Shown: positions 1 through 16,046 of the stretch, piece after piece
Layout: every line of letters starts with the position of its first letter
Position numbering within the stretch: the stretch's first letter is position 1
NCBI GenBank assembly: GCA_039933355.1
Contig: JBDTOH010000001.1
Location: 1-41,745, forward strand
Reading direction: 5' to 3'
Source: Gemmatimonadota bacterium
GTDB lineage: Bacteria; Gemmatimonadota; Gemmatimonadetes; Gemmatimonadales; GWC2-71-9
DNA: 41,745 nucleotides
Position numbers and translations under genes: made by a program
The notes under the pieces: generated by a model
Told to the model about the DNA's origin: nothing
What the model saw: the letters and a program-made list of their open reading frames with translations, nothing else
Databases searched by the model: none

Positions 1-156
1 GTCGGAAATCGGAAGTCGGAGGGATTGGCGCGACTGGGCAAGAGAGGCAGCGGAGGTGCCCGTGGCCTTGCCTCCCAAGCGGCCCCGATTCCGACTTCCG
101 ATTTCCGACTTCTGATCGCCAACTTCCTACTTCCCGCTTCCGATGCTACAATCCCC
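1..156. repeat. heptamer-periodic inverted repeat element, copy A (left arm cut by the window edge)
   Basis: Positions 1-20 (GTCGGAAATCGGAAGTCGGA) are the perfect reverse complement of 100-119. The right side continues as ~9 degenerate heptamers (CCGAYTT-like) over 94..156. It shares 13-nt and 17-nt identical blocks with the element at 13918..14000. Confidence 0.85.
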
Positions 157-9610: not shown

Positions 9611-9724
9611 CAGAGCAAAATAGCGGGGGTGGTGGGCTGCCTGACACTTACGAGGCCGATCTCCGTAGTAGCGGGGACGCTGCTCCCGGGCGGCTCCGAA
9701 CCCCTCATTCAATCTGGAGGTCGT

Positions 9725-9964
9725 GTGGGTCTACTCTGGACAATTCTCATCGGTTTCGTGATCGGTTCGCTGGCCAAATTCCTGCTCCCCGGCAAAGATC
9801 CCAGTGGCTTCTTGGTTACCACCCTCCTCGGCATCTGCGGCTCGTGGTTTGGCTCGTGGATCTTCGGGCTGGTAGGCTGGGGAGGCGGGGCCGGATTCAT
9901 CGGGTCGGTGATCGGAGCGGTGTTGCTGCTCGTGATCTATCGAGCGGTGAAGAACAAGAGCTAG
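9725..9964 (+). CDS. GlsB/YeaQ/YmgE family stress-response membrane protein (transglycosylase-associated)
   Basis: 79 aa (VGLLWTILIGFVIGSLAKFLLPGKDP...GSVIGAVLLLVIY), typical of the family. The start is GTG 9725, 4 nt after GGAGG. Confidence 0.75.
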   Translation: MGLLWTILIGFVIGSLAKFLLPGKDPSGFLVTTLLGICGSWFGSWIFGLVGWGGGAGFIGSVIGAVLLLVIYRAVKNKS

Positions 9965-9965
9965 T

Positions 9966-10064
9966 GGGAATAGGGAATGGGGAATCGGGAATCGAACACG
10001 CGAAGGGGCGCTCACCGTACCCCGATCCGTCGTCTCCATTCCCGATTCCCCATTTCCTATTGCC
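9966..10064. terminator. heptamer-periodic long hairpin filling a convergent intergenic gap (candidate bidirectional terminator)
   Basis: The left arm (9966-9993) is GGGAATA GGGAATG GGGAATC GGGAATC. The right arm (10037-10064) is CATTCCC GATTCCC CATTTCC TATTGCC. Complementarity is 25 of 28 positions, with a 43-nt loop. The element sits exactly between the glsB-like stop (9964) and the lpdA stop (10064). Confidence 0.75.
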
Positions 10065-11458: not shown

Positions 11459-11472
11459 GATTTACTCCACTA

Positions 11473-11539
11473 GGGTTCGGGGTTCGCGACCTGGGGACTG
11501 GGGACTGGGGACTGGGGACCGGGGTTCCGAGCTCCGAGC
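11473..11539. repeat. tandem heptamers in the E2-lpdA intercistronic spacer: (GGGTTCG)x2, (CTGGGGA)x4, (TCCGAGC)x2
   Basis: Read directly, and confirmed by the translation SPVPSPQSP of ORF 11462..11644. On the transcribed (minus) strand the central unit is CCCCAGT. The plus strand carries 5 GGGG runs with 3-nt spacers (11493..11524). Confidence 0.85.
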
Positions 11540-11550
11540 CGCGAACGGTT

Positions 11551-12894
11551 TCACCACACCAGCGCCAGGGGGTTCTCCAGCATCATCTTCACGGTCCTGA
11601 GGAATGCGGCGCCGGTCGCTCCGTCGATCACCCGGTGATCGCACGACATCGTCACCCGCATTCGCCGCTGCGGCATGATCTGCCCGCCGACCACCGTCGG
11701 CACCTCCGCGATCCGGCCGATGGCGAGAATGCCGGACTCCGGCGGGTTAATGACGGCGGTGAAGTGCTCAATGTCGAACATCCCGAGGTTCGAGATCGAG
11801 AACGTCGCGCCGGTGTACTCCTCGGGCTTGAGCTTGCGCTCGCGCGCCCGCCCGGCCAACTCCTTCGATTCCGCGCTGATCTCGCGGAGCGACTTCTGAT
11901 CGGCGTTCCGGATCACCGGCGTGATCAGGCCGTCCTCGACCGCGACCGCCATGCCGACGTGAACCTCGTTCCAGTACCGGATCTTGTCGTCTTGCCACCA
12001 CGCGTTGCAGGCGCGATGCTGCCGAAGCGCCGCGGCGACCGCCTTCACCACGATGTCGTTGAACGACACCTTGCCCGCGTCGCCGGCCTGCGCCTTGAGC
12101 GCCTCCCGCGCGTCCCACGCGCGTTCCATGTCGATCTCGGCGGTGAGATAGAACGTCGGGATCGGACCGATCGATTGGGCCAGGCGCTTGGCGATGGTCT
12201 TTCGGATCTGCGTGAGCGGGACATCCTCGAACGGTGCGCCGGACGTGCGAATCGGTGCGCGCGGTGCGGCCCCTGTCGCTGCAACGGGCGTGGGCGCTGT
12301 GGTTGGGACAGGGGTGGGCGTTGCTTTGTCGAGATCCCGCTTGATGATCCGTCCTTCTGGCCCCGACCCCGCCACTCCCGCGAGGTCGATCCCCTTGTCC
12401 GACGCGATCTTCTTGGCGAGGGGCGATGCCTTGATCCTGCCGTCGATAGCACCCGCCCCTCCGCCGGGCTGAGCCTTCGCGGATTGGGCCGGCGTGGCCG
12501 CATCCGCCGCCGCGGGAGCTTCACGCGCCGGAGGCGCTTCAGCAGCCGGCGCTGACTCGGCGGCCGGCGCCGCCGCGGTCTCACCTGCCGCCTTGCCGCC
12601 TTGCCGCCCTGCCGCCTGCCCTGCCGCCGCGGCCCCATCGTCCCCCACGGCTTCACCGGCAGCGCCAATCCACCCGACCAGTGAGGATACGGGAACCGTC
12701 GCCCCCGCAGCGACCACCTGCTTGAGCAGCTGGCCCGCAGCCCGCGCGACCAGCTCCATCACCGCCTTGTCCGTTTCCACCTCCGCGAGCACATCCCCGA
12801 CCGCGACCGCGTCGCCTTCCTTCTTCTTCCACTCGACGAGGCGTCCCTCCTCCATGGTCGGCGAAAGAGCCTCCATCACGATCTTCGTCGCCAT
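11551..12894 (-). CDS. pdhC: pyruvate dehydrogenase E2, dihydrolipoamide acetyltransferase (single lipoyl domain)
   Basis: 447 aa. It has a lipoyl-lysine motif (ETDKAVMEL), an Ala/Pro/Gly linker, a peripheral-subunit-binding domain (ASPLAKKIA), and the catalytic DHRVIDG. Confidence 0.9.
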   Translation of the reverse strand: MATKIVMEALSPTMEEGRLVEWKKKEGDAVAVGDVLAEVETDKAVMELVARAAGQLLKQVVAAGATVPVSSLVGWIGAAGEAVGDDGAAAAGQAAGRQGGKAAGETAAAPAAESAPAAEAPPAREAPAAADAATPAQSAKAQPGGGAGAIDGRIKASPLAKKIASDKGIDLAGVAGSGPEGRIIKRDLDKATPTPVPTTAPTPVAATGAAPRAPIRTSGAPFEDVPLTQIRKTIAKRLAQSIGPIPTFYLTAEIDMERAWDAREALKAQAGDAGKVSFNDIVVKAVAAALRQHRACNAWWQDDKIRYWNEVHVGMAVAVEDGLITPVIRNADQKSLREISAESKELAGRARERKLKPEEYTGATFSISNLGMFDIEHFTAVINPPESGILAIGRIAEVPTVVGGQIMPQRRMRVTMSCDHRVIDGATGAAFLRTVKMMLENPLALVW

Positions 12895-12928: not shown

Positions 12929-13906
12929 CTAGACATACAGCACCTGCTTCACCGCGGCGATCACTTTCGGCACGTCGACCTTGGAGGCCCGCTCCAGCGT
13001 CTTGTTGTACGGCATCGGAACATCCGCGCCCGTGACGCGAATGATCGGGGCGTCGAGCGAATCGAAGGCGTTGCGCTGGATCACGTCGACCACCTGCGCG
13101 CCGACCCCGGCAAACGGCCAGCCCTCTTCCGCGACGACGCACCGGTTGGTCTTGACGATCGATGCAAGAATCGCTTCGGTATCGAGTGGGCGGATCGTCC
13201 GGAGGTCGAGCACTTCGGCCTTGATCCCTTCTTCGGCGAGCTGATCGGCGGCTTTGAGCGCGATCGCCACGGTCTTCGAGTGACAGACGATCGTGACATC
13301 GGTGCCCGCCCGCTTGACCTCTGCTTCGCCGATCGGAGTCAAGTACTCCTGATCCGGCACGTCGCCCTTCTGATTGTAGAGCATCTCGCCTTCGATGAAG
13401 ACGACCGGATCGTCGTCGCGGATCGCGCTCTTCAAGAGGCCCTTGGCGTCCGCCGCGGTCGCCGGGGTCACGACCTTGAGCCCTGGGATGTGAGCGTACC
13501 AGCTCTCCCATGACTGACTGTGCTGCGCCGCGAGCTGGAGCGCCGAGCCGCCGGGCCCGCGGAACACGATCGGGATCGAGAACTGCCCGCCCGACATGTA
13601 GCGGATCTTGGCGGCGGAGTTGACGATCTCGTCGATCGCGAGGAGCGCGAAGTTCCAGGTCATCATCTCGATGACCGGCCGGAGCCCCACCATCGCCGCT
13701 CCCACGCCGATTCCCGTAAACCCCAGCTCGGCGATCGGCGTATCAACGACGCGCTTCGGTCCGAACTCCTTGAGAAGCCCGCGGCTCACTTTGTACGCCC
13801 CGTCGTACTCCGCGACTTCCTCGCCCATGAGGAAGACCCGGTCGTCCAGCTTCATCTCTTCACGGAGCGCCTGATTCAGCGCATCGCGGTAGGTGATGAC
13901 GGCCAT
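12929..13906 (-). CDS. pdhB: pyruvate dehydrogenase E1 beta subunit
   Basis: Homology starts at ATG 13906 (MAVITYRDALNQALREEM), preceded by GAGGAG. The upstream part of the ORF (to 14023) is translation of the repeat element. Confidence 0.9.
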   Translation of the reverse strand: MAVITYRDALNQALREEMKLDDRVFLMGEEVAEYDGAYKVSRGLLKEFGPKRVVDTPIAELGFTGIGVGAAMVGLRPVIEMMTWNFALLAIDEIVNSAAKIRYMSGGQFSIPIVFRGPGGSALQLAAQHSQSWESWYAHIPGLKVVTPATAADAKGLLKSAIRDDDPVVFIEGEMLYNQKGDVPDQEYLTPIGEAEVKRAGTDVTIVCHSKTVAIALKAADQLAEEGIKAEVLDLRTIRPLDTEAILASIVKTNRCVVAEEGWPFAGVGAQVVDVIQRNAFDSLDAPIIRVTGADVPMPYNKTLERASKVDVPKVIAAVKQVLYV

Positions 13907-13917
13907 CAGGATCTCCT

Positions 13918-14000
13918 CGGAAATCGGAAGGCGGAAATCGGAAGTGAGGACATCACGAGGTCCCCCCGGTTTCCGGTTTCCGATTTCCGACTTCCGTCGC
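13918..14000. repeat. heptamer-periodic inverted repeat element, copy B, at the pdhA-pdhB junction
   Basis: The left arm is CGGAAAT CGGAAGG CGGAAAT CGGAAGT (13918-13945). The right arm is CCGGTTT CCGGTTT CCGATTT CCGACTT (13966-13993). About 21 of 24 positions pair in the best register. The pdhA stop lies in the loop, and the pdhB SD directly follows the element on the mRNA. Confidence 0.85.
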
Positions 14001-14999
14001 ATAGACATCGCGGTGGAGCGCATCCAATTCCGGCTCGGGCGATTCGTCGGCGAACTTATACGCGTCCTCGACCTCCGCGAGCGCTTCCGCGTTGAGCTGC
14101 TCGTAACCCGGGTCGTCGAGGTATCCGCCGGCCCGCATAACGTCGGCGAGCACCTTGATCGGGTCGCGCCGCCGGTATTCTTCTACTTCGTCCTTGGTGC
14201 GGTAGGTGCCGTGGGCCGCGTCCGACATCGAGTGGCCGACGTATCGGTAGGTCCGCATCTCGAGCAGCGTCGGCTTCGATTCAGTCCGGGCTCGCTCGAC
14301 AGCCTTGTCCACGGCCGCGCGGACCGTGAGCACGTTCTGGCCATCTACCTGCTCGGCGGGCATGTCATAGGCCGAGCCGCGGACTGAGAGGCCGGTCACC
14401 GCGCTCGCGCGGGCGACCGCCGTGCCCATGCCGTAGCCGTTGTTCTCGCAGATGAAGACCGCCGGCAACTTCCACAGGCCGGCCATGTTGAGCGTCTCGT
14501 GGAACGCGCCGATGTTGACCGCGGCCTCGCCGAAGAAGCAGACCGAGACTTGGTCGCCCCCGCGGTACTTGATCGCGAACGCGGCCCCGGCCGCGAGCGG
14601 GATGTGGCTGCCGACGATTCCGTGCCCACCGAGAAAGCCTAACGACTTGTCGAAGATGTGCATCGAGCCGCCCTTGCCGTGCGAGCAGCCGGTTGCCTTG
14701 CCGAGGAGCTCCGCCATGACGGCCCGCGCCGCGATCCCGCGGGCCAGCGCATGGCCGTGCTCGCGATAGGCGGAGATGACGTAGTCGTCGGGACGAAGGG
14801 CGGCGAGCGCCCCGACCGCGACCGCTTCCTGGCCGATGTACAAATGACAGAACCCGCCGATTTTTCCGAGCGAGTACGCTTCGCCCGCCTTTTCCTCGAA
14901 CCGGCGGATCAGGAGCATCTGCCGGAGGTAGCGGCGGTGGAGCTCGGCCGTCGCGGCATCCACCTTGGTCGGCGGCTTGGGCGCCGCTGTTGTCGCCAT
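13953..14999 (-). CDS. pdhA: pyruvate dehydrogenase E1 alpha subunit
   Basis: Starts at ATG 14999 (MATTAAPKPP...), overlapping the lipA stop by 1 nt (TGATG). It has the alpha-proteobacterial/mitochondrial-type motif RRFEEKAGEAYSLGKIGGFCHLYIGQEA. The last ~15 codons (ATEVGNRKPETGGTS) are encoded by a heptamer repeat arm. Confidence 0.9.
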   Translation of the reverse strand: MATTAAPKPPTKVDAATAELHRRYLRQMLLIRRFEEKAGEAYSLGKIGGFCHLYIGQEAVAVGALAALRPDDYVISAYREHGHALARGIAARAVMAELLGKATGCSHGKGGSMHIFDKSLGFLGGHGIVGSHIPLAAGAAFAIKYRGGDQVSVCFFGEAAVNIGAFHETLNMAGLWKLPAVFICENNGYGMGTAVARASAVTGLSVRGSAYDMPAEQVDGQNVLTVRAAVDKAVERARTESKPTLLEMRTYRYVGHSMSDAAHGTYRTKDEVEEYRRRDPIKVLADVMRAGGYLDDPGYEQLNAEALAEVEDAYKFADESPEPELDALHRDVYATEVGNRKPETGGTS

Positions 15000-15961
15000 C
15001 AGGAGCTCCTCTTCGCCTTCGCCTGGTCCACTTGCTCCCAAGCGTGGTAGCTGGAGCGGGTCAGCGGGCTCGCCTCCACATGATCGAAGCCGAGCCGGAG
15101 CCCGATCGCCCGAAGCTCGGCGAACTCGCCGGGAGCGTAGAACCGGGCGACCGGAAGGTGGCTCGCCGTGGGACGGAGGTACTGCCCGATCGTGAGAATG
15201 TTGACATCGCTCCGCCGCAGGTCTTTCATCGCCTGGACCAGCTCGTCCCACTCCTCGCCCATTCCAACGATGATTCCCGACTTGGTCAGGGCATCGGGAT
15301 CGATCCGCCGCGCGTTCGCCAGGAGATCGAGCGCACGCTGGTAGCGTCCCCCCGGACGCGCCAGCCGATAGAGCCGGTCCACCGTCTCGAGATTGTGATT
15401 GAGGATGGCAGGCTTGGCGTCGAGCACCAGCCGGAGCGCAGTCTCGGAGCCCTTGAAGTCGGGAATCAGCACTTCGACCGAGCTGTCGGGGAGTCGTTTC
15501 CGAATCTCCGTGATGCAGCTCGCGAAGGCCTCCGCGCCGCCGTTAGGTAAGTCGTCCCGATCGACCGACGTGATCACAACGTGCTGGAGCCCCATCTCCG
15601 CGACCGCCTCGGCGAGCCGGACCGGCTCCACCGGGTCGAACGGCTTCGGGGTTCCATGCGCCACCGCGCAGTAGGCACAATTCCGGGTACACACATCGCC
15701 CAGAATCATGAACGTCGCCGCTTTGTGCTCCCAGCATTCGCCGATGTTGGGGCAACGGGCTTCCTCGCAGACCGTATGGAGGCCGAGGTCGCGCATCAGC
15801 GCTTTGATTCGAGCGTAGTTCGGCCCGCCGGGCGCCTTCACCTTGAGCCAGCTCGGCTTCCGCTCCAGCGGAACTGCGACTGAAACAGGGCGGTTGACCT
15901 CGGGAATGGCCGGGGCGCGGGTCAGTTGTACGAGAGGTAGCGCCACTCGGGATCTCCTCAT
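14999..15961 (-). CDS. lipA: lipoyl synthase (radical SAM)
   Basis: It has the CEEARCPNIGEC auxiliary cluster motif and the radical-SAM CTRNCAYC. The start is either ATG 15961 or TTG 15979, and neither has a good Shine-Dalgarno. Confidence 0.9.
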   Translation of the reverse strand: MRRSRVALPLVQLTRAPAIPEVNRPVSVAVPLERKPSWLKVKAPGGPNYARIKALMRDLGLHTVCEEARCPNIGECWEHKAATFMILGDVCTRNCAYCAVAHGTPKPFDPVEPVRLAEAVAEMGLQHVVITSVDRDDLPNGGAEAFASCITEIRKRLPDSSVEVLIPDFKGSETALRLVLDAKPAILNHNLETVDRLYRLARPGGRYQRALDLLANARRIDPDALTKSGIIVGMGEEWDELVQAMKDLRRSDVNILTIGQYLRPTASHLPVARFYAPGEFAELRAIGLRLGFDHVEASPLTRSSYHAWEQVDQAKAKRSS

Positions 15962-16046
15962 CCGAAATGTCGGTACCAACGTCGGTACCGAGCCACCTAG
16001 AATAGCAGCAGACGAGGTTGGACGGAAGCTGAGGCAGGGCTATGGG

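Follow-up and report, generated by a model that had tools for sequence, protein, structure and literature searches.

A heptamer-repeat hairpin between pdhA and pdhB in a Gemmatimonadales genome, most likely a tolerated repeat of a known kind

Introduction

In the PDH operon of the window (the whole stretch of DNA analysed here, 41,745 nucleotides), two inverted arrays of tandem heptamers meet at the junction of pdhA and pdhB, which raises the question of whether this hairpin controls the operon or is simply carried by it. An earlier note on this DNA had suggested that the hairpin could set the E1-alpha:E1-beta stoichiometry, or act as a processing or stability element, and had seen in it one copy of a dispersed family. 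The window belongs to the metagenome-assembled genome of a soil bacterium (5.9 Mb in 771 contigs, 66% G+C, 88% complete), and a reference-genome scan places it in Gemmatimonadales. The likeliest reading, we argue, is that of a tolerated repeat, of a kind already known but poorly understood, and not that of a conserved control element of the PDH operon, since the hairpin is one of at least 157 genome-wide and is missing from all the close relatives examined.

Results

Anatomy of the junction

The genes of the operon and the parts of the junction lie as follows.

14999..15979, minus strand: lipA (lipoyl synthase by Pfam)
13953..14999, minus strand: pdhA (E1 alpha, 348 aa), with Pfam E1_dh at residues 27-324 (E = 1.8e-93)
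13966..13996, minus strand: G-rich arm, the 5' arm on the mRNA, within pdhA and coding for residues 335-345 (TEVGNRKPETG)
13945..13965, minus strand: core (loop) of 21 nt, with the final pdhA codons GGG ACC TCG and the TGA
13955..13953, minus strand: pdhA stop codon TGA, within the core
13917..13944, minus strand: C-rich arm, the 3' arm on the mRNA, four units CTTCCGATTTCCGCCTTCCGATTTCCGA, occupying the pdhA-pdhB spacer
13913..13918, minus strand: pdhB Shine-Dalgarno GAGGAG, read from the sequence, 6 nt upstream of the ATG
13906..13904, minus strand: pdhB start codon ATG, opening an N-terminus (MAVITYRDAL) that can be aligned with orthologues
12929..13906, minus strand: pdhB (E1 beta, 325 aa), with Pfam Transket_pyr (E = 1.4e-43) and Transketolase_C (3.6e-40)
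11551..12894, minus strand: E2 (2-oxoacid dehydrogenase E2 domains by Pfam)

The G-rich arm is made of about four CGGAART-type heptamers (CGGAAGT CGGAAAT CGGAAAC CGGAAAC CGG). Read as mRNA, pdhA ends GAT GTC TAT GCG ACG GAA GTC GGA AAT CGG AAA CCG GAA ACC GGG GGG ACC TCG TGA, and the stop codon is followed by tgtcctcacttccgatttccgccttccgatttccGAGGAGatcctgATG. Tandem Repeats Finder and a repeat search describe the two arrays as TCGGAAA x3.9 at 13917-13943 and CCGATTT x4.4 at 13966-13996. Complementarity between the inverted arms, 25-26 nt each, is 85-88%, and 95% over a stretch of 19 nt; the core between them measures 21-24 nt. These searches and the RNA fold described below confirm a heptamer hairpin at the pdhA-pdhB junction, with the pdhA stop codon in its loop as the earlier note had it.

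Two details of that first reading had to be revised. The right arm does encode the C-terminus of pdhA, yet not its last ~15 residues as stated: it covers residues 335-345, about 10 codons, and A334 belongs to the conserved DVYA and lies outside the arm-encoded residues. The left arm was placed 1 nt short of GAGGAG, whereas the array overlaps that motif (13918..13913), sharing its last 2 nt with it.

We further note that the lipA stop and the pdhA ATG overlap as TGATG (window 14995-14999), and that a tight junction of this type is what several same-genus genomes have between pdhA and pdhB.

The E1-alpha tail and its junction in orthologues

In a comparison of 80 orthologous loci, E1 alpha is conserved as far as ...DVYA, after which come 0-19 unrelated residues; the Pfam E1_dh domain itself ends at residue 324. 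An alignment of pdhA orthologues thus places the end of homology at DVYA, which bears out the suspicion that the tail in the window does not resemble the usual E1-alpha C-terminus, and the arm-encoded residues are absent from the orthologous tails. Among 73 parsed orthologous junctions, a median of 20 nt lies between the conserved end and the pdhB start; at its own junction the window has 94 nt.

The closest relatives are uniform in this respect. None of 23 same-genus or same-family genomes has an array at the pdhA-pdhB junction, which is 5-55 nt long in them; the stop codon usually adjoins or overlaps the pdhB start, and the pdhB ribosome-binding site falls within the final pdhA codons. The PDH operons of G011 and G003, for example, are syntenic with that of the window and have short, array-free junctions throughout. 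Because the conserved part of the orthologues stops at DVYA and the 23 close junctions are free of arrays, the array-bearing E1-alpha tail is, on these alignments, lineage-specific. For strain variants of the same species, no exact pdhB product was on record and two metagenome scans found none.

Two arms around a probably native core

Alignment of the junction with the three nearest genomes (G003, G011 and G018, with 71-73% DNA identity over 600 nt) indicates that the context of the stop codon is shared: CCGGGGGGACCTCGTGA in the window compares with CCGGAGG-CCTCGTGA in G003 and G011. The window exceeds its nearest relatives by 18 nt upstream of this shared stop context and by about 23 nt downstream of it. 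Shuffles scored as well as the core alignment in 2-2.4% of cases (p about 0.02). The pdh core is probably native sequence, judging from this one short alignment of 17 nt. Since the extra bases fall at two separate places around the core, the alignment suggests two arms flanking native sequence, unlike a single inserted block.

A large family of polar repeat pairs

The 13-mer GGAAATCGGAAGT of the hairpin occurs 32 times in the 5.9-Mb assembly, on many contigs, where our own composition estimate gives a chance expectation of about 0.06, and the 17-mer of the family occurs 9 times. Both are present in a second element of the same family, which lies at the very start of the contig.

1..144, no strand assigned: second CGGAART-family element, with a G-rich arm cut by the contig end, an unrelated core of 64 nt and a long C-rich arm

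The claim of a dispersed family with a second copy at the contig start, as opposed to a local duplication, thus stands. The pattern CGGAARTCGGAARTCGG (CGGAART) has 66 matches in this genome, whereas 40 relatives, of which 21 belong to the same genus, gave no match, and neither did the reversed control.

Pairing of arrays is largely a property of two repeat periods. An inverted partner within 300 nt was found for 135 of 487 period-7 arrays and 116 of 406 period-8 arrays, compared with 7/703, 12/595, 0/209 and 6/263 at other periods. At least 157 inverted pairs are left after removal of duplicates (91 heptamer and 66 octamer), and the G-rich arm comes first in 157 out of 157; the octamer pairs, built of the units GGCGGCAA and GACGGTAA, have the same G-first polarity as the heptamer pairs. 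The commonest arm length is four units (119 of 314 arms). A comparison of arms with those of other elements favoured their own partners, but it is biased, the pairs having been chosen by complementarity, and was given no weight.

The pairs also keep a regular position relative to genes, as placed by our own crude gene caller. From the neighbouring stop codon to the beginning of the G-rich arm the median distance is 1 nt, and 42% of pairs overlap the 3' end of a gene; the stop codon falls within the G-rich arm of 44 pairs and, as at pdhA, within the core of 17. Towards the start codon, pairs leave a median gap of 37 nt. Similarly, solitary arrays direct their G-rich strand away from the nearest gene in 129 of 158 cases. 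The pairs in gene gaps (83 tandem, 23 convergent and 20 divergent) can be set against a baseline of 2933, 548 and 546, and this near-baseline mix of gene orientations argues against a dedicated role as terminators.

The cores of the 157 pairs, with a median length of 66 nt, show no relation from one element to the next, except that a few octamer elements have cores in common. These cores bear on the possibility that a miniature element of the MITE or REPIN type was transposed into the junction as one unit. Such an origin would suit a family that is private to the species and present in many copies, as well as the nesting of elements 17 and 36 within the cores of other elements and the few shared octamer cores. 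Heptamer-element cores, however, are mutually unrelated, and at pdh the core looks native, the extra sequence sits at two separate places and no target-site duplication is evident in the flanks. Nor does the 88%-complete assembly contain a Y1 (RAYT) transposase gene (PF01797), which was matched in control genomes. We therefore rejected the MITE and RAYT/REPIN models as they stand and give insertion as a single transposed unit only a slim chance.

Arrays lie within 60 nt of 67 of the 1542 contig ends, against about 21 expected, and the window itself begins inside an array. This threefold enrichment implies that arrays break the assembly, so that array counts are lower bounds. It is also what could make one suspect an artefact of a fragmented metagenome-assembled genome, in which unit counts may be misassembled. 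The pdh element is nevertheless internal to a 41.7-kb contig, both reading frames are intact, the operon is syntenic with those of relatives, and the same architecture is found in long-contig genomes of other lineages; an assembly artefact is very improbable.

Distribution among relatives and at orthologous junctions

Congeners of the window differ sharply from it in array content. Samples of 80-160 kb from G011, G006 and G007 hold almost no arrays of 7- or 8-nt units, against 18 in 172 kb here. Sampling was widened to 22 genomes, of which G025, G026, G032, G034 and this genome have 3-13 paired arms per 100 kb, and G004 has one paired arm in a 13-kb sample; the others, including every other sampled congener of the window, show paired-arm densities of 0-0.7.

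Eight other orthologous loci carry arrays of other units at the pdhA-pdhB junction. These are solitary in L001, L002 and L003 and form G-first hairpins in L005, L012, L036, L037 and L064, of which L036 and L037 are two closely similar Gemmatimonadota loci. The layout of L005 is independently like that of the window, with a coding G-rich arm, the stop codon in the core, a C-rich arm and then the Shine-Dalgarno, and this shared order could hint at a preferred functional arrangement. One of the eight lies outside the phylum: in a Pyrinomonadaceae metagenome-assembled genome (OY970389.1, Acidobacteria), a G-first hairpin of GAGTCAG/GAGTCTG x5 and its complement fills the pdhA-pdhB junction (L064:2469-2590), so the repeat class reaches beyond Gemmatimonadota. 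The idea that this junction is a hotspot for arrays was considered and dropped, as 8 of 73 junctions is close to the overall density in this genome, where about 8% of junctions have arrays, and no hotspot is needed to explain it.

Other arrays in the window

The window contains further arrays within and around the same operon. A four-unit octamer array (GGCAGGGC/GGCAAGGC, 12586-12617, minus strand) falls at about residues 93-103 of E2, in frame in the linker between the lipoyl and E3-binding domains, and encodes AGQAAGRQGGKAAG; no C-rich partner is evident for it, and the linker differs at this place in G011 and G003. The E2-lpdA spacer (11459-11550) is 92 nt long, compared with about 36 nt, array-free, in the same two genomes. 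It holds CCCCAGT x4 at 11491-11524, C-rich on the mRNA and upstream of the lpdA start, the unit of the cyanobacterial STRR1 repeats. Past lpdA, at 9611-10064, a GGGAATN hairpin (9966-10064) is accompanied by about 350 nt of further sequence. G011 and G003 lack both; in them the stop codon of lpdA overlaps the following gene (GTGA).

Predicted folding and the question of regulation

The 111-nt junction RNA has a predicted fold of -47.8 kcal/mol (z = -2.67), equalled in stability by 2 of 200 shuffles. The Shine-Dalgarno and AUG of pdhB are mostly paired in silico, with P(unpaired) of 0.19 and 0.11, and both become more accessible (0.49 and 0.35) if the 5' arm is kept single-stranded, as a terminating ribosome would keep it; this pairing is a single-sequence fold prediction and is treated as weak evidence. 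In a 23S rRNA intervening sequence, RNase III cuts a stem of 28 bp (PMC4990558), and the 25-bp pdh stem is, by analogy, a plausible substrate of this enzyme. A side effect of the hairpin on the mRNA is conceivable. Scans found no intrinsic terminator (a GC-rich stem with a T run) in 13600-14300 and no promoter-like site in the junction region, and a search of the element against the Rfam 15 covariance models gave no match at E up to 1.

A stronger proposal is that the hairpin is a selected intercistronic regulator, likened to the malE-malF REP element of E. coli, which would determine the E1-alpha:E1-beta ratio, tie the initiation of pdhB to translation of pdhA, or provide a site for RNase III or a block to exonucleases. 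The stable stem directly adjoining the Shine-Dalgarno speaks for it, as do the predicted relaxation of pairing once the 5' arm is held open, the resemblance to the 28-bp substrate of RNase III and the like layout of L005. Against these points, the hairpin is absent in 23 of 23 close relatives, its family occupies every type of gene gap, neither an Rfam match nor a terminator-like site was found, and the fold comes from a single sequence. We consider a selected regulator of this kind improbable, and see no evidence that any regulatory role has been conserved.

E1 is an alpha2beta2 tetramer, and both subunits are needed in equal amounts. Given this and the absence of the hairpin from close relatives, a selected role in E1-alpha:E1-beta stoichiometry is unlikely. 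Neither function suggested at the outset, in setting the subunit ratio or as a processing or stability element, gains support: the hairpin is not seen at any of the 23 same-genus or same-family junctions examined, like hairpins occur in all types of gene gap, and the Rfam search was blank.

Arrays around PF05635 genes

Both PF05635 genes of this genome lie between G-first inverted arrays about 485 nt apart.

C394:2892-3500 of G000: PF05635 locus L116
C570:1329-1868 of G000: PF05635 locus L117

The surrounding arrays are GACGGTAA x7.6 with TACCGCCC x7.9, and GGGAATG x4.1 with CCATTCC x5.4. More broadly, 10 of 13 PF05635 genes, from 12 genomes of the order, are bracketed by G-first arrays, each with its own unit. 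Twelve PF05635-positive genomes yielded 44 paired arms in 1.17 Mb, against 2 in 0.56 Mb from ten negative ones, in a comparison that is not phylogenetically independent. PF05635 copy number did not predict paired-array density (Spearman 0.32-0.33, p 0.14-0.15). The link between PF05635 and the arrays is real as an association. That gene-less cores might be remnants of PF05635 cassettes was also considered, and no resemblance was found.

Discussion

How the hairpin may have arisen

We consider it likely that the pdh hairpin is one member of this repeat class, its arrays laid around the native pdhA stop, and that it is a tolerated by-product rather than a selected regulator. Two four-unit CGGAART arrays would have been added so as to flank the stop codon. 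Of these, the G-rich one may have overwritten a dispensable pdhA tail past DVYA, giving about 10 new translated residues, and could be absorbed into the pdhA frame because none of the frames of its unit contains a stop codon. The C-rich array would in the same way have overwritten the short spacer before pdhB. A tight junction would thereby have become a 46-nt spacer able to pair with the end of pdhA in an imperfect stem of roughly 25 bp. Before reaching the stop codon, which sits in the loop, a ribosome completing pdhA would presumably have to unwind the 5' arm, so that the stem should form only on messages untranslated at that point, and pdhB would start from its own strong GAGGAG just outside the stem.

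As to the origin of the arrays, our best guess is that replication slippage acted together with a hairpin-templated (template-switch) step in which one arm is copied into the other. A species-private unit at 60 or more sites and the strict polarity are both left unexplained by plain slippage. The CGGAART unit, private to the species at no fewer than 60 sites, is hard to obtain by local slippage alone, so a sequence-specific spreading process must exist. Addition templated by a reverse transcriptase was considered and rejected, as the 88%-complete assembly has no PF00078 gene.

One bolder reading is that the pairs are written by a lineage-restricted, sequence-specific process other than ordinary slippage, which might be linked to the PF05635 (S23p-type pentamer) cassettes, bracketed as these are by such arrays in 10 of 13 loci. 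It is prompted by the species-private unit (66 matches against 0 in 40 relatives), by sampled congeners almost free of pairs, by the G-rich strand pointing away from the flanking gene and by the pdh arrays lying around native-looking sequence; we regard it as doubtful. If true, such a process would continually rewrite gene ends and spacers and, at pdh, would have exchanged a tight cistron junction for a hairpin that ribosomes must open.

On the tolerated-repeat reading that we favour, an essential enzyme subunit of the PDH operon can have its C-terminus recoded by a fast-spreading repeat, and two cistrons that all close relatives keep in a tight junction can be separated, apparently without damage. 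Any mechanism has to account for several features of the class. The G-first order is strict; arms run to about four units and begin at stop codons; each core is unique and, at the single junction set against relatives, looks native; the units are confined to one species; and congeners have almost no pairs. These family features argue against plain slippage and ordinary transposition alike.

Comparison with known systems

REP/BIME palindromes within operons, such as that of malE-malF in E. coli, can stabilise the upstream cistron. The pdh hairpin is functionally analogous to REP/BIME/REPIN sequences as an intergenic palindrome inside an operon, but its arms are tandem arrays with variable strings of units, there is no conserved palindrome or spacer, and the cores of the family are not conserved. 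Cyanobacterial STRR arrays are known to lengthen helix P12 of RNase P RNA, leaving the native loop between paired arrays. The arrays described here resemble STRR heptamers as intergenic tandem heptamers and differ from them in phylum and base composition. A long inverted-repeat stem that encloses cargo is shared with the 23S rRNA intervening sequences that carry an S23p (PF05635) gene (PMC4990558), although the pdh element has no gene and lies outside rRNA.

The closest likeness is to the heptamer repeats of Xanthomonas. Rehm et al. (2015; PMC4692102) described GGGAATC heptamers in Xanthomonas campestris and X. axonopodis and GGGGAYT in Nostoc. Two Xanthomonas genomes were reported to hold 186 and 183 heptamer arrays, genome-wide and mostly non-coding, with four units the commonest length and with 70-75 cases of two arrays convergent on opposite strands; paired arrays were reported to be rare in Nostoc (PMC4692102). 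The excess of heptamers in bacteria generally has also been discussed elsewhere, and slippage, or the binding of cold-shock proteins to stretches of seven nucleotides, was considered as a possible connection (PMC4679880).

The pdh hairpin agrees with the Xanthomonas repeats (PMC4692102) in several respects. Its arms are tandem heptamers that join a G run to an A/T-rich part, with about four units in each, and its two arrays, alike in architecture and polarity to those repeats, converge on opposite strands. The G-rich arm overlaps the 3' end of pdhA, in keeping with the genome-wide median of 1 nt, and GGGAATC and GGGGACT, the Xanthomonas and Nostoc units, are themselves among the unit families of this genome. 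In contrast to Xanthomonas, there are many unit families here, including some of 8-nt units, 42% of pairs extend into coding tails, and units are private to one species within the genus. The authors of that work emphasise the formation of G-quadruplexes (PMC4692102). This rationale does not fit the CGGAART and octamer families, which have only GG runs; four tracts of three or more G are absent from the CGGAART units, whereas the GGGAATN and GGGGACY families of this genome do have the G tracts of the G-quadruplex type. The pdh hairpin thus belongs to a known, mechanistically unexplained class of repeats, the convergent heptamers of the Xanthomonas type.
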